Shown: piece by piece, positions 6,355 through 48,103 of the stretch
How positions within the stretch are numbered: position 1 is the stretch's first letter
How the letters are laid out: every line of letters begins with the position of its first letter
DNA from: a virus
Taxonomy: Duplodnaviria; Caudoviricetes
Length of the DNA stretch: 54,605 bases
Direction: 5' to 3' (one strand)
IMG/VR virus record: IMGVR_UViG_3300036770_004582
Location: 1 to 54,605 of that record
Translations under genes and position numbers: made by a program
The notes under the pieces: model-generated
What the model was told of the DNA's origin: nothing
Seen by the model: the letters and a program-made list of their open reading frames with translations, nothing else
Database searches by the model: none

Positions 6355-6602
6355 TGGCCGGTCCACTCGTTTACGATCCCCGGTACCACACCTTCGAGTC
6401 GTGGGCCGCGCTTATGGTCGAGCAGTACGGGGCGAACCAGTTGGAGATCCCTACGCCCTACACCGACTGGAAATCATGGGGGAACGGTCTGAAGGCCATC
6501 GACCTCTTCACTAACGAAGCGATACCCGACACGAACGGGTACGAAGATTGGCACGACTGGGCCGAGGCCCTACTTGCAGCGATGAACCCGAGGTCCGTAT
6601 AA
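6354..6602 (+). CDS. Hypothetical Trp-rich protein
   Basis: 82 aa, translationally coupled on both sides. Confidence 0.65.
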   Translation: MAGPLVYDPRYHTFESWAALMVEQYGANQLEIPTPYTDWKSWGNGLKAIDLFTNEAIPDTNGYEDWHDWAEALLAAMNPRSV

Positions 6603-9600
6603 TGGCGTTAAATCTCTTCCCATCACTCAGTTTTGGAAATCAACCCTCGAACATCACATTACGGTCCGAACCACTGAATCTTGGGCTTTCGTTCGAAGAT
6701 CTGGTCGCTTCTTCTTCCCGTGCCGCGAGTTCACCACTACTGAGCGTTACGAACACAACGCCGGTCGAACTTCCGCCGGTCAATCGTTTCGATCCTGCGT
6801 CGATAGACCCAGCCTCATATGGCCCCTTTCTGCCTCAACCCGACGTAACGGGCGTACCTCCCGCACGGACCTCTACAACACCACCGTTGAGGTTAGTGGA
6901 CCCCGCCGAGTATGCTGTGTCCTCCCCGGGTGGAGTGGAAACGTTAACCATTAATCCCCGACCGGGCGCACTTACAACGGCGACCACACCCGCCACAACT
7001 CTGAATATCGCCGATTATCCTTTTGGCGAGGGTCCGACGATCAAAGAAACTGTAACGCCGGAAGAACAGGAACGAAGGCTCGAACTGGCATTAGGTGCCA
7101 CCGTGCGGCTTCCGACCCCGGAAGATATGGTACAAACAGCTGCATACTCAGCAGTCGGGGAGCCATTGGACCCCTCAGGGGTGGCCTATTACACCGAGAA
7201 ACTTCGCACGGGTGAACTCACCCCAGATAGCTTGGCGCGAGACATTGCTTTTGGAGCACAAAGCGAGACGCAACAACAGAAGGCTAATGATTTTCTGCGC
7301 GAAGAACTTGGGTATGATTATTACATGCTCGGCGGTAAGGACGATGTGGACCTCTCAAATTTTCCCGAAGAGACCGTGAACACGATTCAGAGTATGGCAA
7401 GATCGATTCTCGGGGAGGAGCTGCAGCTTGACCGGGTGGCGGTGTTGGCAGAAAAAATGGTCTCGGGTGAACTTACCGACCAGACGCTTGTAGGCGAACT
7501 CGTGTACAACGCCGTGGGTCCAGAGCAGCAGGCACGGGCGAATACCATCCTTGGATACAATTTGTACAACGTTGAACCCGTCGACCAGCTAGTGACACAA
7601 ATTTCGGATCAATACTCCAACATTAATGCTGGTGGGTATCGCTACGGGGGTCGCGGGTCGGAGCTGGATCGCATTTACCAGGGGCAGGCCAATAAACTTG
7701 CCGATATGGGTATCACTAGCATCTACGACCTCGGGTACGAAGAGATACCACAATCGGAAACGATATATGGTGCTATCCCCTACGAGGGTGGGTATTATTA
7801 TGAGGTGGAGCAAAGCGAGGGGCCGGCCGAGCGACGGTACATTGATAAGGATGACGTACTTGAAGCGGATTTTAAGCCTATTCAATATGTAGACTCCGGT
7901 GAGGGCCTTATCGCCCTGCCTCCACGTGTTCAAGTAACATACGCTACTGATCCGATAAAGTTCCTCACGAATAAACAAACCGGCGAACGACTTACTGACA
8001 GTCGTGGTCGCGAGGTGCCTATTGTTCGCCGCGAGGGCTACGAGCGATGGGGTTTTGATACCAGTGTAAAAGGAATGGCAGATTACGGTATTCAGTTTGA
8101 CAAGGACGGCAACGCCATACTCTTTCCGGTGTACAAGGACACGAGTGACACGGGCAAGCTTGCGATGGCCGCCGCAATCATTGCCACACCGTTCATCCCA
8201 CAGATTGGTGCCTTCCTTGGGCCGGGCTTCGCGCCGGCCACGCAAGCGGCGATCGGTGCCACCGCAGTCTCGGCGGGTACCCAACTGCTCGCTACCGGTA
8301 AAATTGACCCGCTGCGGACTGCAGTGTCAGCCGGGTTCGCGTACGTGGGCACCACCGGGAATTTAACCGGTGCGGACATAGCGGCAGAGGCAGCGGACCT
8401 CACCTCACGCGGGCTGGAGACCGCGCAAGTAGCCTCGACCTTGGAGTCTATGGGCGTGAACTCGGTGACTGCGAATCTCGCCTCTCAGTTCTCCGCTGCC
8501 GGAGTTCCGGTCGAATATGCCCCAATGCTTACCGCCGGTGTAACCAACGGCTCGCTGCTTGCACTTGATGCAATCAGCAACGAAGGTGACTGGTCCTCGG
8601 CATTCAGAAACGGGTTCCTTACTGGTGCCTCGGGTGAAGCATCGGCCTTCGCCGTAAGTAAACTAATTGGTGATGATGCTATTCGCGAATTAGCACGGGT
8701 GACGAATCTCACTCCAGCGCAGATAAACGGCATCGCCGCTCAAAGTGTGTCAAGCGCGATCAACGCCGAGGTGTTGAACACCGGTAACTTCTTTGATGTC
8801 CTTGGGACCACTGCGGTATCGCTCGGTGTTGGCCAGTCGGGTGCGAATGCTATCGTCCAAGCGTTCAGTGACAAACTTAGCCCCAAAGAGGTCGCCGGTA
8901 TGACCTCCGTCGCCCGCGACGTACTTACCACGGGCACCGCAGCTGTCTTAAACAATCGAGACCCGGGCGCGGCTGTAAATGCTAATCTGGTAAACACCGC
9001 CATCAATGCGATTTCAGAAGTAACCCGCGCGCCAAGTCAAGAGGCAGTGGACGAGAACCGGCAATCACGGATAGACGCTGAAGTCAGCAAGGTAGAAACG
9101 GGTGAACTTTCGGGCAATCCGGCCGCAGTGGAAGCTTACCAAAATGCGTTGGGTGAGGGCAAGACCCAAACGGAGGCGATTGACGCCGCGAAGCGAGTGG
9201 TGGCGACCGAGCGGGTAGACGCTGCCGTCGGAACGACTAGCACCACCGAACCCGTGATCATTAAAGACGAGACCGGCGCGGACGTCGAAGTGTTCAAGGT
9301 GCCATCATGGGACATTAAAGAGGGCAAGATCGACCCGAAGCCGATGGAGAACGTTTATCGTGACGCCAACGGCAACGTGTACGTAAATACGGTTACCGAG
9401 GACGGCACCTCCGTCACAGTGTCGGCCCCGCAATTTCTGTCCACTGCCCTCGGAATCGGCGTGCAATCCGCTACCGAACTGGTGTCGAATTTCTACAACG
9501 GCGTTCGTCTAATGGGCGGTGCAAGCCCCGACAGCGCCTTCAGCAAGATGCTGGACCAGATTAACGAGACCGGTGGGAAGATGGAGTCGCCGGAGATCCA

Positions 9601-11671
9601 GGCGGGTAAAGCGGATATCTCCCGTCGACTGAATGAGGCCGAGGGGTTCGATATTGTAACGGAGCTATTTAAGTCCGCCATTGATAATCCCTCCGCTGCA
9701 ATGTCGTATGTGGCTATTGAACTTCCTCAGGAGCTGGCCGTTATTGGTGTGGCTGCTAAGGTTTCCAAGGCCTTTGGTTTCCTTTATGGTTTAGGCGCTG
9801 ACGCTATGATGAATGCGGTTGATGCGGGTGGTGCAGATGGGAAGCAGGCATTCGACGAGGCAATCAAGGCAGGCAAGAGTCCCGAAGAGGCGATGGACGT
9901 GGCAATGAACGTGTTTACCACCTCGGCGGCGCTTTCCGGTGTAATCTCCCCTCTTATCGACGCTCCCTTCATTAAAGGAGCTGCCAAGGCAAACGTTCCT
10001 ACCACTGGGCGAACCGGCACGCAGATTGCTCAGGACGTACGCAATGCGGGTACGGCAACGGTGAAAGAAACAATCGAAGAGGGTGGCCAATCCTTTACCG
10101 TTGCTGGTATTACCGACTACTTGATTACCGGTGAGGTGGACTGGGGTGATGCGTTCCGGCAGGGTGCGACGAATTCTTTCTACGGCGGCCACACCGCCGG
10201 AGCGACTTCTGCTACTGTCTCGTCCATCAACACCTCGACCGGCCCAGTGGCAAACAACCTCTCGGTCGTGGACCCCTCGAATGCCTCCTCCCACCTGACG
10301 ATGATCAACGACACGCTTGCCTCCTCGCCCAGCACGAGTGCAGCGGCCACCACGATCTCCACGAATTTGCAGAATGGTGGGATGCCTGCGGCACAGGCCA
10401 ACAACATCGCCAACACCGCAATCGCCGAATCGGTCGTGGCCGACGTTAACGCCAACGCCGACGGCCAGTTCCAGATCGGCGACTTGAACACTGCAATCGG
10501 GGTCGATTCAAACGGTGATGCGGTGACGCTCGGCGACTATCTGGGGTCGAACTACACAAACCTCGGTTCCACTCAGGTCGCGATTAACCCAAGCGCGGTA
10601 ATCGGCACCGACGTGGATGGTACCCCGCTTACGATCCAAAATATCCAAGACCTGTCGACTTCCATTACCATCGACACCTCGGTGACGACCAACCCGAACA
10701 CGGGCGTGGTGACCGAAACGAAGACGGACGTGAACCCCGAGACGAACGTCGTGACCGAGACCAAGACGGATGTAGACCCGAACACGAACACTCAGACCGA
10801 GACCAAGACGGATGTAAACCCAAATACGAACACGGTGGTGGAGACCGACACTACTACCGATCCAAACACGAACGTCGTTACCGAAACCGAGACCTCGACG
10901 AATATAGAGACCGACATGCAGGTGGTAACTCGGACCGAAACCGACCCGGTTACGGGCGGCACCACGACGACGACCGAGGAGCGCAAGCCGGACGAGGAGG
11001 AGAAAGAAGAGAAAGAGGAAAAATTCCGCCGACTGTTGCAAGGCAGTGCCGCTGGTGCTACACTTTTGGCTGCAGCCTCCCCCGCGACCTCTAAAATCAT
11101 GCTGCCCGAGGAGACTTGGCTGGGTGGCAAGCCGCGAGTGACGCCCGAAATGCTTGACCTTTTTAAAATATTTGCTAAGGACACCCCTGAGATGCAAGAA
11201 CAGGAAATCTTCTCCGCCCTTCGCCGGGCCTCGGGTCTCGAAGACTCCCCCGGCCCTCGTCCCCTCATCTCGGAACCCTCCTACTATTCGTACGGCGCCG
11301 AGACCACCCCCGGGTCCGTCATCCGACCATTCCGGCGGGGTGGGACTGTACAAAACCCTATTTCGGATGATACAATGACGGGGTCACCACTGGCACGCGC
11401 GTCGGGGGGTGACGTCGGGCATAAGGGTACACACTACGTGCAGGGTGCCGGGGGCGGGCAGGATGACCTGATTCCGGCGAAGTTGGCCGACGGGGAGTAC
11501 GTTTTTGACGCCGAGATCGTTGCCGCACTCGGTGATGGTTCGAACAAAGAAGGTGCGAAGATCTTGGACAAGTTTCGCGAAGAAATACGGAAGCACAAAC
11601 GCGGGGGATCTACCAAGACCATCCCTCCGAAGGCTAAAAGCCCGCTGGCTTATTTAAGGAGTGTAACATGA
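6602..11671 (+). CDS. Large internal virion / ejection protein (~1690 aa)
   Basis: Start refined to ATG 6602 (TAATG coupling). Ala/Gly-rich helical middle, Thr-rich repeats and C-terminal GGGQDDLIPAKLADGEYV domain; position matches podovirus ejection proteins. Confidence 0.7.
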   Translation: MALNLFPSLSFGNQPSNITLRSEPLNLGLSFEDLVASSSRAASSPLLSVTNTTPVELPPVNRFDPASIDPASYGPFLPQPDVTGVPPARTSTTPPLRLVDPAEYAVSSPGGVETLTINPRPGALTTATTPATTLNIADYPFGEGPTIKETVTPEEQERRLELALGATVRLPTPEDMVQTAAYSAVGEPLDPSGVAYYTEKLRTGELTPDSLARDIAFGAQSETQQQKANDFLREELGYDYYMLGGKDDVDLSNFPEETVNTIQSMARSILGEELQLDRVAVLAEKMVSGELTDQTLVGELVYNAVGPEQQARANTILGYNLYNVEPVDQLVTQISDQYSNINAGGYRYGGRGSELDRIYQGQANKLADMGITSIYDLGYEEIPQSETIYGAIPYEGGYYYEVEQSEGPAERRYIDKDDVLEADFKPIQYVDSGEGLIALPPRVQVTYATDPIKFLTNKQTGERLTDSRGREVPIVRREGYERWGFDTSVKGMADYGIQFDKDGNAILFPVYKDTSDTGKLAMAAAIIATPFIPQIGAFLGPGFAPATQAAIGATAVSAGTQLLATGKIDPLRTAVSAGFAYVGTTGNLTGADIAAEAADLTSRGLETAQVASTLESMGVNSVTANLASQFSAAGVPVEYAPMLTAGVTNGSLLALDAISNEGDWSSAFRNGFLTGASGEASAFAVSKLIGDDAIRELARVTNLTPAQINGIAAQSVSSAINAEVLNTGNFFDVLGTTAVSLGVGQSGANAIVQAFSDKLSPKEVAGMTSVARDVLTTGTAAVLNNRDPGAAVNANLVNTAINAISEVTRAPSQEAVDENRQSRIDAEVSKVETGELSGNPAAVEAYQNALGEGKTQTEAIDAAKRVVATERVDAAVGTTSTTEPVIIKDETGADVEVFKVPSWDIKEGKIDPKPMENVYRDANGNVYVNTVTEDGTSVTVSAPQFLSTALGIGVQSATELVSNFYNGVRLMGGASPDSAFSKMLDQINETGGKMESPEIQAGKADISRRLNEAEGFDIVTELFKSAIDNPSAAMSYVAIELPQELAVIGVAAKVSKAFGFLYGLGADAMMNAVDAGGADGKQAFDEAIKAGKSPEEAMDVAMNVFTTSAALSGVISPLIDAPFIKGAAKANVPTTGRTGTQIAQDVRNAGTATVKETIEEGGQSFTVAGITDYLITGEVDWGDAFRQGATNSFYGGHTAGATSATVSSINTSTGPVANNLSVVDPSNASSHLTMINDTLASSPSTSAAATTISTNLQNGGMPAAQANNIANTAIAESVVADVNANADGQFQIGDLNTAIGVDSNGDAVTLGDYLGSNYTNLGSTQVAINPSAVIGTDVDGTPLTIQNIQDLSTSITIDTSVTTNPNTGVVTETKTDVNPETNVVTETKTDVDPNTNTQTETKTDVNPNTNTVVETDTTTDPNTNVVTETETSTNIETDMQVVTRTETDPVTGGTTTTTEERKPDEEEKEEKEEKFRRLLQGSAAGATLLAAASPATSKIMLPEETWLGGKPRVTPEMLDLFKIFAKDTPEMQEQEIFSALRRASGLEDSPGPRPLISEPSYYSYGAETTPGSVIRPFRRGGTVQNPISDDTMTGSPLARASGGDVGHKGTHYVQGAGGGQDDLIPAKLADGEYVFDAEIVAALGDGSNKEGAKILDKFREEIRKHKRGGSTKTIPPKAKSPLAYLRSVT
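10688..10975 (+). repeat. About six degenerate 45-bp (15-aa) in-frame tandem repeats, (N/D)PxTxxxTETKTDV
   Basis: TNPNTGVVTETKTDV/NPETNVVTETKTDV/DPNTNTQTETKTDV/NPNTNTVVETDTTT/DPNTNVVTETETST... read from the translation. Confidence 0.85.
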
Positions 11672-23388: not shown

Positions 23389-23658
23389 ATGTACGATAAT
23401 ACCAACACCGGTATGATGATGCGCAACGAGAACCGCGAACACGACAAGCAGCCGGAGTTCAAGGGGTCGTTGAATGTAGACGGTCGGGACTTTTGGATCT
23501 CGGCTTGGGTGAACACCGGGAAGGAAGGCTCCAAGATCGAGGGCAAGAAGTACTTCTCGATCAAGCTTACCGCGAAGGATGCACCAAAGGACACCAAGCC
23601 AGCGGCCAAGGCTCGCGTCGGGTTCGAGCGCGATCTTGACGACGAAATCCCCTTCTAG
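23389..23658 (+). CDS. Small SSB-like protein with bacterial SSB-type C-terminal tip
   Basis: QPEFKGSLNVDG..FWISAW core; ends LDDEIPF. Confidence 0.7.
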   Translation: MYDNTNTGMMMRNENREHDKQPEFKGSLNVDGRDFWISAWVNTGKEGSKIEGKKYFSIKLTAKDAPKDTKPAAKARVGFERDLDDEIPF

Positions 23659-23659
23659 T

Positions 23660-25492
23660 ATGTTCCCACGGGTAGATTCCCCGGTCACTGCCGTGATCGA
23701 CTGCGAGACCACCGGGCTGCGGTGGTGGAAGGACCGCGTGTTCGGCGTGGCACTGTTGCTGCCCGGCGCAGACCCCTACTACTGGGACCTGCGGCAGACG
23801 CCCGGGGCGGTAGATTTCCTGCGGGATCTCGCCGGGTCGCCACACGTGGTGCGGTGGGTGAATCATAATTTGAAGTTCGACTATCACTTCCTGCGCGAAG
23901 CGGGCGTGGTGCTCCCGGTCGAGCGGCTACACTGCACGATGGTGCGGGCCGCGCTGATCAACGAGAATGAACCGGTTTACGAGCTGGACTTCTTGGCGCG
24001 CAAGTACGCGAACCAACGGAAAGAATCGGAGATTTACACGCAGCTGGCCGAGATCTTCGGGGGGCGGGCGACGCGCAACGCGCAGATGCCAAATCTGTCA
24101 AAGGCGCCGGCGCAGATCGTGGCACCCTATGCCAAGCAGGACGTGGTGGCGGCGCACGAATTGTACCTGTGGCAGGAGGGCGAGATCGAAAAGCAGGGCC
24201 TGCACCGGGTGTACGAACTTGAGTGCCGGCTAATGCCGGTCATCATCGATATGGAAGAGCAGGGCGTGCGGGTGGACGTGGACCGGGCCGAAGGGGCCGT
24301 TCGTGACCTTACCACGCGGATCGAGCGGATGCAGCGGGAGCTGAATGCGCAGGCGGGATTCGAAGTGAACCCGAACCCCTCGGGGTCGATCGCGCAGCTG
24401 TTCGAACCGAAGCTCGGCGAGGACAACGAGTGGTACCTGATCGACGGGACGCGTGCCGAGAAGACCGAAGGAGGGAAGGCCTCGATCAACGCCGATTGCC
24501 TGCGGCGGATGCGGCACCCGGCGGCAAAAATGATCCTGGATCTGCGCAAGATGCTCAAGACCCGTGATACTTTTCTTTCCGGTCACATCCTTGGGCACCA
24601 CGAGGACGGTGTAATTCATTGCAATTACAACCAGACCAAGAACGACTCGGAGGCCGGGACCGGCACCGGGCGGCTCTCGGTTACAAACCCGGCGCTGCAG
24701 CAGATCCCGTCGCGCGACAAGGACATCAAGGCGCTGATCCGCCCGATTTTTTTGCCCGACCATGGCGCCCGCTGGTTAGGACTTGATTGGTCGCAGTTCG
24801 AGTTCCGGGTGGCGAACCACTATGGCAACGTGCCCGCGATCTTGCGGGCGTACGCGGACAACCCGAATCTGGACTTCCACCAGTTGGTCTCCGATATGAC
24901 CGGGATCCCGAGGAATGCGGAGTACGCCGGTGGTCCTTCCTCTAAGGCCATAAATCTTGGGCTTGCATTCAACATGGGGTCGGGAAAGCTGGCGCAAGAG
25001 TGTGGGCTTCCCTTTACCGAGGAGTCGGGGCCGAACGGGAACGTCTACCTGCGTGCCGGACCCGAGGCGATGGAGCTGTTCGAGCGTTACCACGCTGCGA
25101 ACCCCGGGATGCGGAACATGGCACAAAAAGCGTCAAGTATCGCCAAGGAGCGCGGATTCGTGCATTCGGTGATGGGCCGGCACCTGCGATTCCCGGGCGG
25201 GCAGTTCGTGCACAAAGCTTCGGGGCTAATTTACCAAGCCACCTCGGCCGACTGCATGAAGCAGAAGCTGATCGAGTTGCACGAATACCTGCAGCACCAC
25301 GCCTGCGGGCGGTTGCTGTTGACCATTCACGACGAGGTGGGAATCTCGCTCGATAATGATTCGCCGGAGCACGCCGATGAGGTGGCCCGGATCTATACGA
25401 CTTTTGATGGTATAAAATGCCCAATTGCACTTCGTGTACCAATTACGTGCGAATGGGGTCTGGGTGAAAATTGGTACGAAGCGAAAGGATAA
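23660..25492 (+). CDS. dpoZ: Family A DNA polymerase with 3'-5' exonuclease, DpoZ-type
   Basis: Start refined to ATG 23660. Exo motifs DCETTG, HNLKFD, YAKQD; TGRLS; motif A DWSQFEFR; motif B KAINLGLAFNMG; motif C IHDE; directly upstream of purZ. Confidence 0.85.
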   Translation: MFPRVDSPVTAVIDCETTGLRWWKDRVFGVALLLPGADPYYWDLRQTPGAVDFLRDLAGSPHVVRWVNHNLKFDYHFLREAGVVLPVERLHCTMVRAALINENEPVYELDFLARKYANQRKESEIYTQLAEIFGGRATRNAQMPNLSKAPAQIVAPYAKQDVVAAHELYLWQEGEIEKQGLHRVYELECRLMPVIIDMEEQGVRVDVDRAEGAVRDLTTRIERMQRELNAQAGFEVNPNPSGSIAQLFEPKLGEDNEWYLIDGTRAEKTEGGKASINADCLRRMRHPAAKMILDLRKMLKTRDTFLSGHILGHHEDGVIHCNYNQTKNDSEAGTGTGRLSVTNPALQQIPSRDKDIKALIRPIFLPDHGARWLGLDWSQFEFRVANHYGNVPAILRAYADNPNLDFHQLVSDMTGIPRNAEYAGGPSSKAINLGLAFNMGSGKLAQECGLPFTEESGPNGNVYLRAGPEAMELFERYHAANPGMRNMAQKASSIAKERGFVHSVMGRHLRFPGGQFVHKASGLIYQATSADCMKQKLIELHEYLQHHACGRLLLTIHDEVGISLDNDSPEHADEVARIYTTFDGIKCPIALRVPITCEWGLGENWYEAKG

Positions 25493-25494
25493 GC

Positions 25495-26613
25495 ATGGAA
25501 CATATAGATGTAGTGTTGGACTTGCAGTACGGGAGCACCGGCAAAGGGCTGCTCGTCGGGTGGTTGGCCCAACGCCGCAGGTACGACACGGTCGTGACGA
25601 CTTGGGCACCGAACGCGGGCCACACATTGATCGACGACACCGGGCGCAAGTTCGTACACACGCAGCTGGCGCTCGGCATCGTTTCGCCGTTGTGCAAGCG
25701 CGTGTTGCTTGGGCCGGGGTCGGTGATTGACCCCGTGAAGCTGCTCGATGAAATTGCCAGCTGTGCGGACCTGATCACCGCGAACAACATCCGAATCGCG
25801 ATTCACCCACATGCGGCAGTGGTGCAGGACGGACACCGCGAGGAGGAGGGCGCTAACCCCGGACAAATCGGCTCCACTCGCAAGGGCGTGGGTGCGGCGT
25901 TGATCGACCGGATTCGACGGCGGCTCAACGGTAATGTCGCCATAAACGATGACCGACTCGTTGACTACGTGGTCTCACCCGAACAGTACCGGGAGTTGCT
26001 GCGGCAGTCGTGCTCGGTGTTGGTCGAGGGCGCGCAAGGGTATTCACTTTCGATGTACCATGGCTTCTACCCGTTTACTACCTCGCGGGATGTGAGTACG
26101 TGGCAGATTCTCGCGGATTCGGGTATTCCGTTCAATGAATGCAAGCGGGCAACGTTCGAAGTGTACGGGACCGCGCGGACCTTCCCGATTCGGGTGGCGC
26201 ACCGGTTCGACGATGCGGGGCGGCAGACCGAGAACAGCGGGCCGTTCTACACGGACCAGCACGAGATCTCGTTCGAATCGATTGGACAGCAGCAGGAGCT
26301 GACCACCGTGACGCAGTTGCCGCGCCGGCTGTTTACCTTTTCGGCCAAGCAGATTCAAGAGGCCATCCAGTACAACGGTGCACGCAAGGTGTTCTTGAAC
26401 TTCTGCAACTACGTGCAGCACTTGGGTACCCTGTTGGACATCGTGGATGCGATCGAGAAAGGCGGCGAAGCTCGGGTAGCAGTGATCGGGTTCGGGCCTA
26501 CCACTCGGGATCTGGTCGACATTGACAACTTCTCGGAATTCGCGACCTTGAACGGCTCGCAACGCAGGGCTAAAATTCTTAACGCTTGGAAGGACTATCA
26601 TGCCAAAATATGA
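25495..26613 (+). CDS. purZ: N6-succino-2-amino-2'-deoxyadenylate synthase (PurA paralogue)
   Basis: Start ATG 25495. DLQYGSTGKG (Ser in place of the PurA Asp of GDEGKG), PNAGHT, IGST, EGAQG, TSRD, PIRV, ELTTVT..PRR and NFCNY motifs match PurZ rather than PurA. Confidence 0.95.
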   Translation: MEHIDVVLDLQYGSTGKGLLVGWLAQRRRYDTVVTTWAPNAGHTLIDDTGRKFVHTQLALGIVSPLCKRVLLGPGSVIDPVKLLDEIASCADLITANNIRIAIHPHAAVVQDGHREEEGANPGQIGSTRKGVGAALIDRIRRRLNGNVAINDDRLVDYVVSPEQYRELLRQSCSVLVEGAQGYSLSMYHGFYPFTTSRDVSTWQILADSGIPFNECKRATFEVYGTARTFPIRVAHRFDDAGRQTENSGPFYTDQHEISFESIGQQQELTTVTQLPRRLFTFSAKQIQEAIQYNGARKVFLNFCNYVQHLGTLLDIVDAIEKGGEARVAVIGFGPTTRDLVDIDNFSEFATLNGSQRRAKILNAWKDYHAKI

Positions 26614-27079
26614 ATCGGATTTTCACACCACCGACCGTGCACCGCTCCCTTGGAAGGCGCGCGATACCGAATTGCTCGACGCCAACGGCGCGATGATCGC
26701 TACCTTCGAGGTACGACACACGACCAAAGGCCTGCTTGCCGGCGCCTACAAGAACTGCCAGTGGGCGGCGGACGCGGCGAACCACTACGAACACGACGGG
26801 CTGTTGGCGATGCAAGAGCGCGTGGCGATGTGGGCCGACAAGCAGTTCCCAAACCGGACCACAGCCGATGTGCTTCTGAAGCTTTACGAGGAACTGGGTG
26901 AGTACGCTCGGAACCCGAAGGCGGAGCTGGAATTCGCCGACGTGATGGTGCTGCTGCTGGATGCGGCGCATATGAACGATATTAACATCGCGAAGGCAGT
27001 GGACGAAAAAATGACAATTAATGAGGAGCGAAAATGGCAAGTGGACCCCAACACCCGTATTATGAGGCACGTACCATGA
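26600..27079 (+). CDS. mazZ: MazG-like (d)GTP/dATP diphosphohydrolase with extra N-terminal domain
   Basis: WADKQFP, KLYEELGE, EFADV..LLLD and KM.IN..RKW motifs of the DUF550/MazZ type; overlaps purZ. Confidence 0.8.
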   Translation: MPKYESDFHTTDRAPLPWKARDTELLDANGAMIATFEVRHTTKGLLAGAYKNCQWAADAANHYEHDGLLAMQERVAMWADKQFPNRTTADVLLKLYEELGEYARNPKAELEFADVMVLLLDAAHMNDINIAKAVDEKMTINEERKWQVDPNTRIMRHVP

Positions 27080-27342
27080 CCGAGGAGAAGATGATCGAAG
27101 TGGATCCTCGGCACGTGGAGTTCAATCAATGGTTCAACGTACTGTTTCCTGACCAGTCACCCGAGATGCGGTTCCGACTTGTCGCCTCCACCGTGGCCAC
27201 TTGGAACGCGGCACTCACCGTTGCTGCGACGAAGTTCCACATGATGGCACAGGAGGAGGGGTACGACAAACAGCTCACGCCGGACCAAGTGGCGGACTTG
27301 GTAGAACGAATGAAAGTGTCGGAATATGTTAACGTTAACTGA
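27076..27342 (+). CDS. Hypothetical protein inside the Z cluster
   Basis: ATGA coupling with mazZ at 27076; overlaps the datZ start. Confidence 0.6.
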   Translation: MTEEKMIEVDPRHVEFNQWFNVLFPDQSPEMRFRLVASTVATWNAALTVAATKFHMMAQEEGYDKQLTPDQVADLVERMKVSEYVNVN

Positions 27343-27886
27343 TCAATTACGGGCGGGCCACGTCAACCGGTGGCAAATCGTGCAGACGGCACGGCCGCAG
27401 ACGCTGGCCGAGCATTCGTTCCACGTCTGTGCGCTTGCCGGCGAACTCGCGCTGCTAGCGCAATGGCCGGGGCTGGATGATCCGCACCAGCGGTTAGAAC
27501 TGATCTTTTGGGCCATGTACCACGACTTGATCGAAGTCAAGACCGGGGATTTGGCCACGCCGTTCAAGGAATGCCTACGGCAGGCGGGTGGGGCCGAGAT
27601 CGTGCAAGAGGCCGAGCGGATTGCGGACGAGGAGTACTCGGAGATGCACGCCCGGGTGCGGGGCACCCCAATCGGGGCGATAGTGAAGATCGCCGACATG
27701 ATTGAGGCGGCGTACTTCCTGCAGGACAATGGCTTGGGGTCGCACGCGCAAGAGGTACTTGCGAACATCTACCGCTCGATCCGCGAACTTGCTAACGATT
27801 CGGTCGAGGACTTCCCCGATCTGCATTTGTACCACGCCGCGCAGCTGGTCTGCGAGCGCGTGATCCGTGAAAGGGTATTTCTATGA
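27326..27886 (+). CDS. datZ: HD-domain dATP triphosphohydrolase
   Basis: LRAGHVNRWQIVQT..Q..AEHS, HDL.E.KTGD..TP.K, K.AD..EA..FL..NGLG.HA, closely following the DatZ pattern. Confidence 0.9.
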   Translation: MLTLTDQLRAGHVNRWQIVQTARPQTLAEHSFHVCALAGELALLAQWPGLDDPHQRLELIFWAMYHDLIEVKTGDLATPFKECLRQAGGAEIVQEAERIADEEYSEMHARVRGTPIGAIVKIADMIEAAYFLQDNGLGSHAQEVLANIYRSIRELANDSVEDFPDLHLYHAAQLVCERVIRERVFL

Positions 27887-28095
27887 AGTGTCCAAAGTGT
27901 GAAGGGGTAACGCGTGTTACGACTACTTACCAGAATAAGGCGAACACTACTCGACGGCGTCGCGAGTGTACGGTATGCAATTACCGATTCACGACCCGGG
28001 AGAGTGCTGAAACGGCGTTGGAGACGTTGGAGGATGAGCGGCAGATGATGCTGGAACTGCGCGAGGAGAAGGACGATGCCGGCGACGCGATTTGA
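27883..28095 (+). CDS. NrdR-like zinc-ribbon protein without ATP cone
   Basis: MKCPKC...T.V......RRRREC..C..RFTT.E. Confidence 0.75.
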   Translation: MKCPKCEGVTRVTTTYQNKANTTRRRRECTVCNYRFTTRESAETALETLEDERQMMLELREEKDDAGDAI

Positions 28096-28339: not shown

Positions 28340-28575
28340 TTGAGGAGAAATTCGCGCTTTGGACGCTCGGTTGGACCATGGGTATCATGACCGTCATCGC
28401 GGGCGACAAGCTAATGGATCGGAACGGGTATTCGGCGCCGACCGACACTGAGTTGGTAAGGGCCGAAACACTAATCGAGATGTACAACCGGGGGAAAGAG
28501 GACGTGCTGCGGCTGAATCCCGTGTCGCCCGAGTTGGACGCCGCGTGTCTGGAGCTGTGGACGCGCCGGCAGTGA
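28336..28575 (+). CDS. Small membrane-anchored protein
   Basis: GAGGAG RBS, ATG 28336, hydrophobic N-terminus. Confidence 0.55.
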   Translation: MIEEKFALWTLGWTMGIMTVIAGDKLMDRNGYSAPTDTELVRAETLIEMYNRGKEDVLRLNPVSPELDAACLELWTRRQ

Positions 28576-28682
28576 AACGGCGCTGGATGCAGTGCAAGCG
28601 GTGCGCGTCCAAATGTCTGTGGAAGCCCGCCCGGCGTTACTGTACGAAATGCGAAAAGCTGTTTAAGGCCATCAGCCATTGA
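28572..28682 (+). CDS. Micro zinc-finger protein (36 aa; not in ORF track)
   Basis: GTGA coupling; translates MKRRWMQCKRCASKCLWKPARRYCTKCEKLFKAISH with two CxxC pairs. Confidence 0.4.
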   Translation: MKRRWMQCKRCASKCLWKPARRYCTKCEKLFKAISH

Positions 28683-28737
28683 CTCGAGTATGCAACCCGT
28701 GTTATAATTGGGCATTCATCAACACTTATAGAGGACA
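28679..28737 (+). promoter_or_regulatory. Cassette promoter (deacetylase)
   Basis: TTGACT-N18-TATAAT with TG extension; ATAGAGGACA leader. Confidence 0.8.
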
Positions 28738-28746
28738 CACCCGACC

Positions 28747-29595
28747 ATGACCCCGCTCTACTTCTCCCCTAAGCAACGCACGACCTACGACTTCGTGTCG
28801 TTGAGCAAGATCCCGCTTTTCGTCGAGCAGTCCGGACGCGAGCCGATCACCGACTTCGAGCCGTTCGAGGACCGACATTTCCACCGTGCGCACTCCCCGA
28901 ACTACGTGGCGGATGTCTTTAGCCTGCGCCGCGTCAACGGCTTCGGCAACCGCAACGCCACCGTGAACGAGTCGCTGCGGTACTCCAACGCCGGGTTCCT
29001 CGCGGCCGCGCTGGATGTGCTGGAGCACGGTGGCATTGCCTGCTCGGCCACGCAGGGGTTCCACCACGCGCACTACGACAACGGGTACGGGTACTGTACC
29101 TTCAACGGCCTGATGATCGCGGCGACGCAGGTGATGGAGCGCTGCGGCAAGGTGCTGATCCTGGACGGCGACGGCCACCTCGGGGACGGGACGGACGACA
29201 TCACCGACGTGCTGGGGCTGGAGCGGTACGTGGTGAACGTCACCCGGGGCCGGGGGTTCGCCTCGAACATGGAGCACTGGAATCAAAACATGTGGGACAA
29301 CTGGGTCTGGGGATTGATTCAGCGGCACAAGCCGGGTATAATATTCTATCAGGCCGGCGCAGATGCGTGGATCGAGGATCCCTACAACGCCGGGTACCTA
29401 TCACTCGAAGGGTTAGCATGCAGAGACCGGGCGATATTCAAGGTGGCGCTGGAGGAGAAGATCCCGGTGGTGTGGAATCTCGCCGGCGGCTACTCGACGC
29501 CCATGCAGCAGGTGGTGGACATCCATCTGCAGACCCTACGAATCTCGGACGAGGTGTTGAATGAGCAAAAGCAAAGTAGCGCTCTCCCTGTTTGA
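28747..29595 (+). CDS. Zn-dependent deacetylase, histone deacetylase (HDAC/AcuC) superfamily
   Basis: GFHHA, GYCTFN, ILDGDGHLGDGT, YQAGADAWIEDP and LAGGY motifs all intact. Confidence 0.9.
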   Translation: MTPLYFSPKQRTTYDFVSLSKIPLFVEQSGREPITDFEPFEDRHFHRAHSPNYVADVFSLRRVNGFGNRNATVNESLRYSNAGFLAAALDVLEHGGIACSATQGFHHAHYDNGYGYCTFNGLMIAATQVMERCGKVLILDGDGHLGDGTDDITDVLGLERYVVNVTRGRGFASNMEHWNQNMWDNWVWGLIQRHKPGIIFYQAGADAWIEDPYNAGYLSLEGLACRDRAIFKVALEEKIPVVWNLAGGYSTPMQQVVDIHLQTLRISDEVLNEQKQSSALPV

Positions 29596-31006
29596 TCTTC
29601 TGCGCGGGATCGGCAAGACCGAGGAGAAGCTCGTGGAGAAGATTCCCGAGGCGGCTAAGGTACCGGTAGCTAAACGCCGGTTGACCGAGGGGATGCTGCC
29701 GCAGGAGATCGTCGATTTTTACAATCGTGAGGGGATGCTTGGGCGCTACCGCACCGGGGCGCCCGCCGTGGCGGATATTGTAAGTCGCTCGCGCGTCCCG
29801 GGTACGCAGTACGGGATGAAGACCGCGCCGGTGGAGACGTCCAGCTTGCCTAAAAACGCCGAGATCCGATTTATGACGCCCGAGGAGTTGGCCAAGCCCG
29901 TGGAACGGCGGACTCCTACCGGTAAGTTTTCGATCGAGCAGGACGAACAGCTAGAGGGAGCGCTTAATATGTACCCCTCAATCGAGTACCTGCTTAAACA
30001 GGCAGAGAAGTCGCCGACGATAGCACAGCGAACACTCGGACGAGGGCCGGTGACTCGGCACCTGACCACGACGCAGGCACCACCCGATATCGGAGCACAG
30101 GGATATCAGCTGGCATACGACATGACCCGAGGGCAAGGGGACGTGAACGTGGCCGACATCCTGACTTCGCGCAACGTCCTGCGCCGCCCGCTGAACGCGG
30201 CGAACTACGGGATCGCCCGGGGCGATTTTCGCAACGTGATGCCAATGTCGGACAAAGGTATCGGGGTGTCGAGCGAGCAGATCGGGCAGAGGGTTTTAGG
30301 CGGTCGGGGACTGGACACTTCGGACCTGCAGCTGGAGTACTTGACTCAACTGCTCGGCGACCGGGATTTGGCCTCGCAGGCGATGAATTTCGACGCGCTC
30401 CAACTGGCCAAAACCGGCGTTGGCGACCCTTCGGTTGCGACCGGGTACTTGGGGCTTACCAACGCTATGCGCTCGGCGTTGCTGGGACCCGACGCCTACG
30501 CGGCGCTGAAGAACACCGTGCATCCGGGCGACCTGAGTATGCTGCGCAAGATCATCTCGGCCGAGGACCTGCGAGAACTTGATAAGGCCTCGAACGTCAA
30601 AGGCGCTTTCGGTCCCGGTGCACTGGGCCGGGCGCGGACGGTGGAGGCGGCGGTCGAGGGGCTGAAGCAGCAGATGACGCCGGACGAGATCGTGGAGGAG
30701 ATCACAAAGGGTGTTGACCCCTCAGGCTTTTTTGGACGATACAAGCATGGAGGCGGGGTACGCAAGTACAAAGCCGGTGGACTTTCCGCCATCCGGCCAC
30801 CAACACCCACGCCGGTCGAGGCACCCACGCCGGACCCGCTGGTCGAGATGATCATGCGGCAGCTCGGGGTGCCGGCCGGGGGGTCGCCCTCACCGGAACA
30901 GCTCGAGCAGTTCAACGAGATGTACAATCGAATGCTTGAGCAGCGCCGACTGCGAGAGGAGACGTACGACTACCCGTTCCGGGAGCACGACGCAGCATTA
31001 GGGTAG
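29561..31006 (+). CDS. Uncharacterised 481-aa protein with two YKxGG motifs and a possible GNAT-like domain
   Basis: GAGGTG RBS; overlaps the deacetylase by 35 bp. The function call is tentative. Confidence 0.7.
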   Translation: MSKSKVALSLFDLLRGIGKTEEKLVEKIPEAAKVPVAKRRLTEGMLPQEIVDFYNREGMLGRYRTGAPAVADIVSRSRVPGTQYGMKTAPVETSSLPKNAEIRFMTPEELAKPVERRTPTGKFSIEQDEQLEGALNMYPSIEYLLKQAEKSPTIAQRTLGRGPVTRHLTTTQAPPDIGAQGYQLAYDMTRGQGDVNVADILTSRNVLRRPLNAANYGIARGDFRNVMPMSDKGIGVSSEQIGQRVLGGRGLDTSDLQLEYLTQLLGDRDLASQAMNFDALQLAKTGVGDPSVATGYLGLTNAMRSALLGPDAYAALKNTVHPGDLSMLRKIISAEDLRELDKASNVKGAFGPGALGRARTVEAAVEGLKQQMTPDEIVEEITKGVDPSGFFGRYKHGGGVRKYKAGGLSAIRPPTPTPVEAPTPDPLVEMIMRQLGVPAGGSPSPEQLEQFNEMYNRMLEQRRLREETYDYPFREHDAALG

Positions 31007-31030
31007 TGTGTGGTAGTTCGCCCGGCTCGT

Positions 31031-31112
31031 GGGTATAGAGCCGGGTATAGAGATGGGTATAGAGGTATATTTTAACGTTTCGAGTATAGAAAGGGGTATA
31101 GAGATGGGTACA
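31031..31112 (+). repeat. GGGTATAGAG direct repeats
   Basis: Exact copies at 31031, 31043, 31055 and 31094; degenerate copies near 31083 and 31106. Confidence 0.8.
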
Positions 31113-31478
31113 GATATAGGTACGATACTTGCCGAGCGCGGGGCGCGCTACGGAGACTTTGCGGAGCAAGCAAAGATCGCGCAACGGCTCAAGACCGTGC
31201 TGCGGTCAGCGGAACGCGATGTGGCGGAACTCGTGGCGATGCAGGACTACCAGCGCGAGGCGATCGAGATGATTTGTCATAAACTCGCCCGCATCGTCAA
31301 CGGCGACCCGTACTACGCGGACTCCTGGACCGATATCGCCGGGTATGCAAAGCTTGTGGCCGACCAGCTGCAGCGAGTGGACGAGGACCAGGTGGAGGCC
31401 TCGGCGCGCGAGTACCGGACGGTCATGGAGCAGGAAGACGCATTCCGCAACACGAAACCCATTCAACGATTCGATTAA
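31104..31478 (+). CDS. DUF6378-like protein (all-helical NTP-PPase-like)
   Basis: ILAERGARYGDF...EMICHKLARIVNGDP.Y.DSW.DIAGYA; start refined to ATG 31104. Confidence 0.75.
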   Translation: MGTDIGTILAERGARYGDFAEQAKIAQRLKTVLRSAERDVAELVAMQDYQREAIEMICHKLARIVNGDPYYADSWTDIAGYAKLVADQLQRVDEDQVEASAREYRTVMEQEDAFRNTKPIQRFD

Positions 31479-31835: not shown

Positions 31836-32126
31836 ATGACCAAGAAAGCTAAAGTACCCGTGATCACCGAAGCCATGGTGGACGAACTCGCCGCAATCCG
31901 CGACCAGCTGAAATCGCTGAACGCACGCGAGAAGGTCCTAAAAGAGGCGTTTCGCGCCAATGGCGCCGGGATCTACGCCGGGGAGTTTAACCAGATCGAG
32001 GTGGTGTTCACCACGCGACCGCAGGTCGACATGGACCAAGTCCGGGACCTGCTTGGTGCCGAATGGATCGCCACGCACTCGCGCGAAGTCGAGATCATGA
32101 ACCTGCGACAGATGGAGCTGGTGTAA
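31836..32126 (+). CDS. Hypothetical early protein
   Basis: 96 aa with own promoter and RBS; N-terminal coiled coil. Confidence 0.75.
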   Translation: MTKKAKVPVITEAMVDELAAIRDQLKSLNAREKVLKEAFRANGAGIYAGEFNQIEVVFTTRPQVDMDQVRDLLGAEWIATHSREVEIMNLRQMELV

Positions 32127-32205: not shown

Positions 32206-33189
32206 ATGGCACACGAACTAGCATTCAAAGCAAACGGTGAAGCAGCAATGGCCTACACCGGGCAGTTGCCTTGGCATGGACTTGGACAGGCACTCGACGC
32301 GGACGCACCGCTTGAGACCTGGATCGAGGGAGCGGGCTTTAATTGGGATGTGAAACGCGCCCCGGTCTTTTTTGAGCAGCGCGACGAGGAGGACCACCCG
32401 GTCGCTACCCGTCGAGTGCCGAACCGGTGGGCGCTGTACCGGTCGGACAACGGTTGCCCGCTTTCGGTGATGAGCAGCAATTACAACATCACGCAGCCCC
32501 GGCAGGTGATGGAGTTCTTCCGCGAGTTGATCGAAATCGGTGGGTTCCGGATGGAGACCGCCGGGCAGCTGCGTGGTGGTGCCACCTATTGGGCGTTGGC
32601 CAAGGCGGACGACTCATTCGATGTCGGCGGCGGTGACCGCGTGCTGCCCTACGTGCTGCTGGCGTCATCGTGCGACGGCTCGCTTTCGAACCTCGCCCAA
32701 TTCACCACCGTGCGGGTGGTGTGCAACAATACGCTGACCATGGCCACCGGCAACGCCGAGGGGCAGGTGCGAATCCCGCATTCCACCCAGTTCAACCCCG
32801 AGCGGATCAAAACGCAACTCGGGCTGATCGGCGGTTCGTGGGATGCATTCAAGAAGGACGCCGTGGAGTTGTCCAAGCGTCACGTATCGAAAGAGGAGGC
32901 CACGCGGTTCTTCCTCGACGTGCTCTACCCGAACGAGGACACGATCGACTTGGAGGCCCACCGCCCAATGTTGAAGCTCGTGACCGAAATTTACTTGAAC
33001 GGCGTGGGCCAAAGCACCAAAACGGCCACCGGCACCGCTTGGGGACTGGTGAATGCCTTCACCCGGGTGGTGGACCACGAGCGCAAGGCGGCGTCGAACG
33101 ACTCGCGGTTGCAATCCGCGTGGTTCGGGTCGGGTGCACGGTTAAAAGACCGCGCATTGACGAAAGCGCTGGAGCTGCTGGCCGCATAA
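32206..33189 (+). CDS. DUF932/DUF945 phage-plasmid family protein
   Basis: MAHEL...PWHGLG, TAGQLRGG, S.DGS, T.VRVVC.NTL and GTAWGL.NA.T...DH motifs. Confidence 0.85.
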   Translation: MAHELAFKANGEAAMAYTGQLPWHGLGQALDADAPLETWIEGAGFNWDVKRAPVFFEQRDEEDHPVATRRVPNRWALYRSDNGCPLSVMSSNYNITQPRQVMEFFRELIEIGGFRMETAGQLRGGATYWALAKADDSFDVGGGDRVLPYVLLASSCDGSLSNLAQFTTVRVVCNNTLTMATGNAEGQVRIPHSTQFNPERIKTQLGLIGGSWDAFKKDAVELSKRHVSKEEATRFFLDVLYPNEDTIDLEAHRPMLKLVTEIYLNGVGQSTKTATGTAWGLVNAFTRVVDHERKAASNDSRLQSAWFGSGARLKDRALTKALELLAA

Positions 33190-42517: not shown

Positions 42518-42706
42518 ATGGTGCGCTCAACCTCGGATTTCATCGGTATGTGCAAAGCCGAGCAGGCGCGTATTTCGCAGTCACTCGTCGAGGGCCACGC
42601 GGTCAATTTCGAGACGTACCAACGGCTCGTGGGCCAGTATCAAGGGCTTGAGAAAGCTCTGGATATACTCGACAATATCTTAAAGGAACCCAATGAAGAT
42701 GAATGA
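42518..42706 (+). CDS. Small conserved hypothetical protein
   Basis: L..G...NFETYQRLVGQYQGL motif, usually found before phage GroES-like genes. Confidence 0.7.
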   Translation: MVRSTSDFIGMCKAEQARISQSLVEGHAVNFETYQRLVGQYQGLEKALDILDNILKEPNEDE

Positions 42707-43127
42707 ACCGGTTGCTTCGAATGAAGCTGCGTTGCAGGATGCATTTCCTGCGGTAGACCCGGGTGCTGTACCTGTCGGTGGACGGATTTTGGTACAGTGG
42801 AGACAAACGATCAAGAAGACTACGAACTCGGGAATTGTTCTCGTCGAAGAGACTAAAGAGACCGAGAAGTGGAACAATCAGGTCGCGAGGGTGATCGCGC
42901 TGGGGCCGTTGGCCTTCAAGAAGCGAGACACCCTTGAACCCTGGCCCGAGGGCAGTTGGGTGCAGGTCGGCGACTTTGTTCGACTTCCGAAGTGGGGTGG
43001 AGACCGGTGGGAGGTGCCCTTTGGGGACCCCAACGAGGGCGAGACCGCACTCTTTTCAGTATTCAACGACCATGAGGTGATCGCGAAGGTCACCGGAGAC
43101 CCATTGAAAGTGAGGGCATTCCTATGA
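42693..43127 (+). CDS. groES: GroES-like co-chaperonin
   Basis: PVGGRILV, T.SGIVL, V.ALGP.A, W.QVGD.V and NDHEV motifs. Confidence 0.85.
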   Translation: MKMNEPVASNEAALQDAFPAVDPGAVPVGGRILVQWRQTIKKTTNSGIVLVEETKETEKWNNQVARVIALGPLAFKKRDTLEPWPEGSWVQVGDFVRLPKWGGDRWEVPFGDPNEGETALFSVFNDHEVIAKVTGDPLKVRAFL

Positions 43128-47290: not shown

Positions 47291-48103
47291 ATGCCCGGAT
47301 TCAAACCGATGGTAAAGATGATGACCACCGAACCCTCAGTCGAACTGAAGCTGAAGAAGGGTGGCTCTGCCTCCCATAAGCGGCTGATGAAAGAGGGTTC
47401 GGGCGATGGGTTCAAGCCAATGAAGAAGCAGACGGGTGGTGCTATAGACGCCATGGCCCGGGAACCTATGCCGACGACCCCTATGGGGAACCCGGCTGCA
47501 GCCCGTGCTATGGCTACTCGCCGTATGGCGAAGAAGCCCACTCCGATGCCTCGTGGCACCCCTTCGATAGGTCGTCCTAAGGCACCCCCGATGATGCCCC
47601 CAATGGCCGCCGCTCCCCGCCCCGCTGGCGCTGGAATGGCTACCCCGATGATGAAGAAGGGTGGGAGCACGGCGAAGAAGCTAGAGAAGCACGCTTCGAT
47701 GCCCGCCTCCAAGGCGCACAAGGGTCTCAAGACTGGTGGTATCGCGAAGTCTCCTAAGCCCGCGCAGTACAAGACCGGTGGTGTAGTCGATGGTCAGGGT
47801 GGTTACAAGGCAGGTGGTATCATCAAGACCACCGCCAAAAAGACCACCAAGATGAACACGGCGCACGTGGACCACAATTCCGCGCCTACCGGTGACGTAA
47901 AACTTGGAAATGCTGGCGGCTACAAAGTAGGTGGCTCTGCAAAAAAGCATTTCGCTACGGGGGGAGTTGTTGACTCTGGCCATCCCGTAGCTATGCCTCA
48001 GGGTCATAAGCCTCCGTCAACGCCGGTGTCGATTAATCGACTCTCGGGAACGTTCAAGACGGGCGGCGGTGTAAAGTCGAAGAGAGCCAAAAGCTCTTGT
48101 TAA
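47291..48103 (+). CDS. Basic low-complexity protein with nine xKxGG-type motifs
   Basis: Lys/Gly/Met/Pro-rich; AGGAGG RBS; followed by a terminator. Confidence 0.75.
   Translation: MPGFKPMVKMMTTEPSVELKLKKGGSASHKRLMKEGSGDGFKPMKKQTGGAIDAMAREPMPTTPMGNPAAARAMATRRMAKKPTPMPRGTPSIGRPKAPPMMPPMAAAPRPAGAGMATPMMKKGGSTAKKLEKHASMPASKAHKGLKTGGIAKSPKPAQYKTGGVVDGQGGYKAGGIIKTTAKKTTKMNTAHVDHNSAPTGDVKLGNAGGYKVGGSAKKHFATGGVVDSGHPVAMPQGHKPPSTPVSINRLSGTFKTGGGVKSKRAKSSC

Follow-up and report, generated by a model that had tools for sequence, protein, structure and literature searches.

An HDAC-family deacylase and an overlapping partner gene with a GNAT-like predicted fold in a lineage of uncultured phages encoding PurZ, MazZ and DatZ

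Why does a phage carry, among its replication genes, an HDAC-family Zn-dependent deacylase gene that runs directly into the gene for a 481 amino acid (aa) protein of no known family? This question is raised by positions 28747–31006 of the IMG/VR virus record IMGVR_UViG_3300036770_004582 (Duplodnaviria; Caudoviricetes), the whole of which (54,605 nucleotides (nt), ~98% complete) was analysed in the present work and is referred to below as the window. A preliminary description of this DNA had noted an intact Zn-deacetylase gene, with a promoter of its own, that overlaps by 35 bp the gene of a possible acetyltransferase, and had proposed that the latter protein is packaged in the virion and modifies host targets at injection, with the early deacetylase reversing or timing the mark. 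Our analyses have confirmed the observation, and the interpretation is partly supported: the deacylase and its partner probably work together, but a writer and an eraser separated in time, and delivery of the partner by the virion, are unsupported. The deacylase/partner pair is obligate within one lineage of uncultured ~55–59 kb phages encoding PurZ, MazZ and DatZ, and the partner has a GNAT-like predicted fold.

The deacylase gene and its linked partner

The features of the pair are as follows:

28679–28708, + strand: sigma-70-like promoter site 39 nt ahead of the deacylase ATG (TTGACT, 18 nt, TATAAT; TG in front of the -10 hexamer)
28747–29595, + strand: 282 aa deacylase of the HDAC family, Zn-dependent and class IV / cluster 5-like (from PF00850, conserved catalytic residues and VcHdaH as best solved relative)
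29561–29595, + strand: 35-nt overlap of the deacylase and partner genes, with likely translational coupling
29561–31006, + strand: 481 aa partner, of a phage-only family without Pfam, PHROG, NCBIfam or PADLOC match
29696–30268, + strand: predicted GNAT-like alpha/beta domain of the partner, residues ~46–236
30320–30730, + strand: all-helical C-terminal domain, residues ~254–390, with a conserved GAFGPGALGRARTxE (from modelled secondary structure and conservation)
30737–30781, + strand: flexible tail with R-Y-x-x-G-G (YKHGG, YKAGG), predicted local distance difference test score (pLDDT) <50
30782–31003, + strand: lineage-specific C-terminal extension of ~75 residues, found in 5 of 16 close homologues but lacking in most family members

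The product of 28747–29595 matches the Pfam model Hist_deacetyl (PF00850) with an E-value of 7.4e-28 (98.2 bits, cut-off 27.9), and the residues H106/H107, D140/D142/H144, D206 and Y249 (the last of these in a GGY motif) occur without exception in the aligned phage homologues (33 of 33) and align with matching stretches of Vibrio cholerae HdaH (VcHdaH); the role that we give to each of these catalytic residues is assumed to be that of its counterpart in HDAC8. In view of this invariance and of the PF00850 match the gene looks functional, in keeping with the intact Zn-deacetylase gene noted previously, and its product is an active-looking Zn-dependent deacylase. The nearest solved structure is that of VcHdaH (9gkv/9gky; 9gkv_B, E 1e-21, residues 61–265), and the phage protein carries G-F-H-H and A-G-G-Y stretches; by best match and motifs it is closest to the class IV / cluster 5 enzymes (HDAC11, VcHdaH). 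Structures of the acetylpolyamine amidohydrolase ApaH and of HDAC8 match only a core of ~50 residues (E ~1e-06 to 1e-05), and the search of structure sequences found no full-length similarity to characterised ApaH (cluster 4) enzymes. The characterised enzymes of class IV / cluster 5 cleave off not only acetyl but also longer acyl chains, and "deacylase" is a safer term than "deacetylase" for this product. Its subfamily is large (1355 clusters at E ≤1e-10 among 2169 candidates); in sequenced phages it is rare, with tblastn matches in 6 of 50,697 phage records, viz. four uncultured phages and two records of Rhodococcus phage E3.

The association of deacylase and partner gene was scored in IMG/VR viral contigs, to which all of the linkage counts refer. 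A scan with the deacylase found 151 contigs, the best 80 of which were kept, and a partner-family gene lies next downstream in 72 of these 80 loci (hmmsearch E ≤1e-93). The two genes overlap in all 72, by 11–119 nt as measured to the longest open reading frame (ORF) of the partner. In the reverse scan with the partner, the deacylase lies directly upstream in 57 of 63 loci, while the other six have <300 nt of upstream DNA; the linkage thus holds for 72 of 72 loci of the lineage and, among partner-centred loci whose upstream DNA is long enough, for 57 of 57, and the association of the two genes that was suspected in the window extends to its relatives. The surrounding gene order is also invariable in the 72 linked loci, viz. 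PolA, PurZ, MazZ, DatZ, NrdR-like Zn ribbon, deacylase, partner, DUF6378, small ORF and DUF932. Across the phage homologues the deacylase is much better kept (49–69% identity) than the partner (18–48% over its domain). A complex prediction for the two proteins, which was made without controls, gave a score of 0.25 against a mark of 0.32 and speaks neither for nor against binding.

The site at 28679–28708 matches the consensus at 11 of 12 positions, which agrees with the promoter ascribed to the deacylase gene as far as a match to the consensus pattern can do so; the promoter scan of 3.8 kb gave 4 sites, where shuffled sequences gave 1.3 ± 1.1. The start of the partner at 29561, and with it the 35-bp overlap reported earlier (29561–29595), is supported because the N-terminus is common to most of 15 aligned homologues. 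The deacylase and the partner are probably translated in step. A second and weaker site (TTGATT, 17 nt, TATAAT; 10 of 12 matches) is present within the deacylase gene at 29314–29342, ~220 nt ahead of the partner start codon, and it could yield a separate partner transcript.

Side observations were also made on deacylase loci that have no partner gene. These loci (L077–L084) lie on contigs of up to 260 kb, and in L077, L078, L081 and L083 genes for the tail sheath and tail tube precede the deacylase gene. An HNH endonuclease gene comes next in L077, where L081 and L083 have an ORF of similar size. A 348 aa gene that precedes the solo deacylase in L077 was considered as a relative of the partner and ruled out (hhalign probability 0.1).

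The partner family and its predicted fold

A tblastn search with the partner against the same 50,697 phage records gave no matches, and nothing was found for either the deacylase or the partner in NCBIfam or PADLOC. A word-based search identified 16 partner homologues, and an exhaustive profile search of 1.84 billion representative proteins identified 37 partner clusters, almost all of them 370–430 aa in length. The AlphaFold model of the whole partner (16 sequences) has a pLDDT of 78.8 and a predicted template modelling score (pTM) of 0.76, and as modelled the partner is a new protein family with three parts, viz. a divergent GNAT-like domain, a helical domain and a short flexible tail. A search of the ESM Atlas with the partner and with a K/G-rich protein of the head region (described below) gave best scores of 0.81 and 0.89, respectively, without any family, and these matches are leads only.

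C-terminal extensions are carried by the window partner, four close relatives and three long forms (L052:6818–9466, 882 aa; L056:6818–8860, 680 aa; and L051:1722–3626, 634 aa). The extra part of the L052 form consists of two tandem copies of a module of ~230 residues with twin-arginine-like S-R-R-x-F motifs, which gives a weak match to Pfam TAT_signal (E 2e-04). No fused forms of 866–2470 aa were found among 8000 candidates, in a weak search that overlooked the 882 aa form of L052. In L059, two tandem partner paralogues (6752–8074 and 8379–9647) lie behind a single deacylase gene.

In the model, residues ~165–220 form a strand (165–169), a loop, a helix (178–191), a strand (195–200) and a second helix (203–220), so that the strand, G-loop, helix and strand pattern previously discerned by eye at residues ~166–213 is present there. 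An alignment of the domain (residues 41–245) from the window and 32 non-redundant loci, 33 sequences in all, was used for refolding, and the resulting domain model has a pLDDT of 85.3 and a pTM of 0.83. In three VIA-align fold lists, nearly all of the top rows are acetyl- or acyltransferases aligned over residues ~46–236. The 50 rows shown for the domain model are all acetyl/acyltransferases or the acetyl-coenzyme A (acetyl-CoA)-binding domain of isocitrate lyase 2 (ICL2/Rv1916), with the sole exception of an entry titled transcriptional regulator. A Foldseek search with the domain model gave Hat1 as the top match (E 0.028, probability 0.85), with mycobacterial Pat enzymes and ICL2 ranking next, and Pat-type protein acetyltransferases (4u5y, 9it0 and 4ava) are among the structural matches to the partner; a Foldseek search of the whole-partner model against the PDB and BFVD gave no match at E ≤0.001.

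Nine residues (G178, Y182, D187, L201, T202, N205, R208, R209 and N212) are invariant in the 33 domain sequences. They are mostly polar or charged and are located on the two helices and the strand of modelled residues ~165–220; the two helices correspond to those flanking the CoA cleft in GNATs. Their invariance argues for a conserved ligand or active site. The AlphaFold and Foldseek results for this region, which the preliminary description had singled out, thus point to a GNAT-like predicted fold.

The favoured reading and its alternatives

The reading that we tentatively prefer is that the pair constitutes a co-expressed acyl-amide editing cassette that acts inside the infected cell. The overlap of the genes, the single promoter-like site ahead of them and their place among replication genes suggest joint expression in the infected cell, where the two proteins would be made together and alongside the replication proteins. 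Both would act on the same amide chemistry, viz. that of N-acylated lysines or other amines in molecules of the host or of the phage: the deacylase would strip acyl marks, and the partner would install a different acyl mark, or bind acyl-CoA or a substrate for the pair. Enzymatic activity of the partner, the substrates and the benefit to the phage are inferred.

Several points weigh against this reading. None of 42 partner-family members matches any Pfam GNAT model at E up to 1, and profile searches of PDB sequences with partner alignments gave no GNAT but only rows at chance level. The Q/RxxGxG/A pyrophosphate-binding loop between strand 4 and helix 3 is absent from the 33 domain sequences, in which G-x-x-x-Y takes its place; the loop has a single invariant Gly (G178), and neither G nor A stands at position +2 in the sequences displayed. 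The degeneracy of this motif had been recognised before, and because of it the use of acyl-CoA by the partner stays putative. The GNAT domain proposed earlier stands as a prediction, at the position originally flagged, as far as the fold lists and the Foldseek match to Hat1 are concerned, but on sequence criteria the partner fails membership of the GNAT superfamily. Further, since the linked loci represent one syntenic phage lineage, the co-occurrence counts are not independent events, and since 8 of the best 80 deacylase loci, which are more distant (37–42% identity), have neither partner nor PurZ, the deacylase can work alone. Lastly, a writer and an eraser present simultaneously would be futile unless their substrates differ.

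The chief rival explanation, which we consider rather unlikely though well worth weighing, denies the GNAT-like domain a transferase role and makes it a subunit that senses a ligand or recruits a substrate and so directs or gates the deacylase. Mycobacterial isocitrate lyase 2 provides a precedent: its GNAT-like C-terminal domain binds acetyl-CoA as a regulator only and recurs among the structural matches of the partner. The nine invariant, mostly polar or charged residues look more like an active or ligand site than a docking surface, which tells against this explanation; nonetheless they would fit ligand sensing too.

It is improbable that the pair tunes polyamine pools, with the partner resembling a spermidine/putrescine N-acetyltransferase and the deacylase an acetylpolyamine amidohydrolase. 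The solved acetylpolyamine amidohydrolase 6phr matches the deacylase over residues 101–152 only (E 2.3e-06), compared with E 1e-21 for the cluster 5b lysine deacylase, and the partner family, with ~400 aa, an extra helical domain and a tail, is unlike the small SpeG or SSAT.

The proposal of the preliminary description, that the partner is packaged in the virion through its aromatic-K-x-G-G tail, is injected and acetylates host targets, and that the early deacylase reverses or times the mark, has to be judged from the distribution of this motif and the layout of the genome. Two further features are needed here:

47291–48103, + strand: basic K/G/P/A/M-rich head-region protein, 270 aa, with seven [YFL]-K-x-G-G-[VIAS] repeats
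42693–43127: Cpn10/GroES-like co-chaperonin in the head module (PF00166, E 1.8e-07)

The partner motifs are YKHGG (nt 30740) and YKAGG (nt 30767), and the only other in-frame YKxGG copies (47768, 47804 and 47921) are all within the head-region ORF 47291–48103. The looser pattern [YF][KR]xGG, tested in 53 + strand ORFs, has 8 in-frame copies in three proteins (2 in the partner, 4 in ORF 47291–48103 and 2 in the 1707 aa ORF 6548–11671), where 2000 within-protein residue shuffles led to an expectation of 0.61 ± 0.77. The earlier statement that these motifs are otherwise confined to structural-region proteins is therefore correct, with the looser pattern adding 6548–11671 to the list. In the partner family, Y-x-x-G-G is present near the C-terminus of 74 of 74 members (R-Y-x-x-G-G in 73 of 74), with just 5–8 residues beyond it in 70 of 74, and the tail consensus is [FYLI]-K-G-R-Y-[KRA]-K-G-G-L-[AV]-x-A-A. 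The protein encoded by 47291–48103 has no family match; its composition is K 14%, G 14%, P 11%, A 12% and M 8%, it ends with a Cys, and it is kept in 5 of 5 complete relatives searched (58–70% identity, 7–8 motif copies). It could be an internal, scaffold-like or DNA-binding protein. The motif shared by the partner tail and this protein is real and conserved. It may direct proteins to the capsid, be cleaved by a protease, act as a DNA-binding repeat or mimic the GroES mobile loop; a Cpn10-like protein is encoded by the phage itself, and its predicted mobile-loop region may loosely resemble the aromatic-K-x-G-G-hydrophobic pattern. The motif lysine is exchangeable for R, A or M, which argues against the motif being simply an acyl-lysine site. 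In the 1707 aa structural-region protein, which has no Pfam or PHROG match, the two copies are at nt 7637 and 11330 (0.056 expected from shuffles).

Nearly all genes of the window are on the + strand. The structural genes start with the large terminase (37652), the portal (39810) and the major capsid protein (45317; PF25209), continue to tail-fibre-like genes and wrap around the ends of the record to ~16.4 kb, after which follows a replication block with a primase, two helicases and a PolA-type polymerase. A C-terminal peptide common to the partner and the structural proteins would suit a capsid-targeting or protease-site role, and the invariance of the tail motif (74 of 74), its 7–8 copies in the conserved head-region protein and its two copies in the 1707 aa protein are in favour of virion packaging. 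However, in 72 of 72 loci the partner gene is part of the replication module, with DatZ before it and DUF6378/DUF932 after it, and is not found among the late or structural genes, and it overlaps the deacylase gene (by 11–119 nt in all 72) behind the same promoter-like site, so that both proteins would appear together and an injected writer followed by an early eraser is not supported. The polyvalent-protein domain LPD37 (PF18853) gives only 2 matches among 42 partner-family members at E 0.01, below the cut-off, and the three long forms score 13.5–15.1 bits, far under the cut-off of 27, over the region equivalent to residues ~144–235. Packaging and injection of the partner are thus quite improbable.

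A further explanation invokes the genes surrounding the pair:

23579–28095, + strand: PolA-PurZ-MazZ-DatZ-Zn ribbon context, the order of which is kept in related loci
25471–26613: PurZ (phrog_1211, E 5e-81)
26600–27079: MazZ-type dATP/dGTP pyrophosphohydrolase
27326–27886: DatZ-type HD dATPase (phrog_7076, E 6e-32)
27883–28095: NrdR-like Zn-ribbon protein (PF22811, E 3e-09)
31029–31478: DUF6378 protein downstream of the pair, conserved with it in related loci
31836–32126: small ORF downstream of the pair, conserved with it in related loci
32206–33189: DUF932/TIGR03299 phage/plasmid-like protein (300 bits), conserved with the pair in related loci

The presence of PurZ, MazZ and DatZ provides the phage with the known gene set for swapping adenine for 2-aminoadenine (Z), and the pair sits directly downstream of this set (polymerase, PurZ, MazZ and DatZ at 23579–27886). 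The pair could accordingly serve DNA or nucleotide modification of the 2-aminoadenine genome, for example as a Mom-like GNAT-fold base enzyme with an amidohydrolase, the Mom protein of phage Mu being of GNAT fold. We regard this as very improbable. The constant position of the pair within the PurZ module, after DatZ and ahead of DUF6378/DUF932, speaks for such a role, but the loci are one lineage and the position may be mere synteny; moreover, the deacylase is found by tblastn in just 6 of the 50,697 phage records. The main texts of papers on Z-pathway genes (bioRxiv 10.1101/2025.10.22.683976 and PMC12884076) mention neither a deacetylase nor an acetyltransferase.

The least probable of these explanations, which we hold to be remote, is that the cassette is an acyl-lysine writer and eraser acting on the phage's own 47291–48103 protein, with the partner tail motif serving as a built-in docking or pseudo-substrate peptide and the charge on a DNA-condensing protein being switched while the Z-DNA genome is packaged or once it has been ejected. 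The repeats of this protein recall the histone H4 G-K-x-G-G sites recognised by Hat1 and NatD, both of which stand high in the partner fold lists, and if true this explanation would give a chromatin-like regulatory layer in a phage.

Under the preferred reading of a co-expressed editing cassette, and if both proteins are active, the pair would provide the virus with a compact means of rewriting N-acyl marks in its host, and the partner would represent a new branch of the GNAT fold, highly diverged and having an unusual CoA loop. If the partner is only regulatory, it would still be, to our knowledge, the first partner described for a class IV-like bacterial or phage deacylase. Its fixed place in the 2-aminoadenine module makes the pair an easy target for synthesis and assay, and it might reveal an unrecognised requirement of Z-genome phages. 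As a separate observation, ~40–57% of 31-mers sampled from 28500–31100 occur in environmental DNA-run contigs from 9 studies besides the likely source, which is only a hint that close relatives may be widespread; the labels of these runs are sediment, soil, marine, seawater, aquatic, wetland and freshwater.

Comparison with known systems

VcHdaH is a cluster 5b lysine de-decanoylase that is grouped with human HDAC11, and its description gives the foot-pocket motifs as GGGFHH/SGGY in HDAC11 and SGGYHH/GGGY in VcHdaH (Graf et al., 2024, PMC11532494). The phage deacylase resembles these class IV / cluster 5 enzymes (HDAC11, and VcHdaH as in 9gkv/9gky) in having the same catalytic set together with G-F-H-H and A-G-G-Y, but it differs from VcHdaH in being shorter (282 vs. 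318 aa), phage-encoded and obligately paired with a downstream gene.

Phage acetyltransferases have been described previously. GNATs in phage polyvalent proteins, and solo capsid-associated GNATs, are RimI-like, and their delivery together with the DNA has been proposed (Iyer et al., 2017, PMC5512222, main text, in which the word deacetylase does not occur). The partner is likewise phage-encoded, and its family gives weak LPD37 matches over the GNAT-like region; however, the polyvalent GNATs are recognisable by sequence and occur in a late or structural context, neither of which holds for the partner. Spermidine acetyltransferases have been reported in phages, and amidohydrolases only in giant eukaryotic viruses; in the available part of this work a viral acetyltransferase and amidohydrolase are not reported as a linked pair (Li et al., 2023, PMC9992855). 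Our system is similar to these viruses in that GNAT (here predicted) and HDAC-family enzymes are virus-encoded, but the window deacylase does not belong with the acetylpolyamine amidohydrolases. The full-text literature searched contained no account of a phage deacylase with an obligate GNAT-like partner.

A parallel in organisation is offered by the acuABC system of Bacillus subtilis, in which the GNAT acetyltransferase AcuA and the HDAC-family deacetylase AcuC control acetyl-CoA synthetase. Similar to acuABC, the phage pair consists of adjacent GNAT-type (predicted) and HDAC-family genes, the phage deacylases are labelled "AcuC-like" by one source, and Pat-type enzymes, which acetylate acetyl-CoA synthetase, are among the structural matches of the partner. 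AcuC regulates AcsA and belongs to cluster 2 (PMC11532494), whereas the best match of the phage deacylase is to cluster 5b. The phage pair further differs from acuABC in that the partner has no detectable sequence similarity to any GNAT family and possesses an extra helical domain and a tail, and in that its two genes overlap and are located in a phage replication module.

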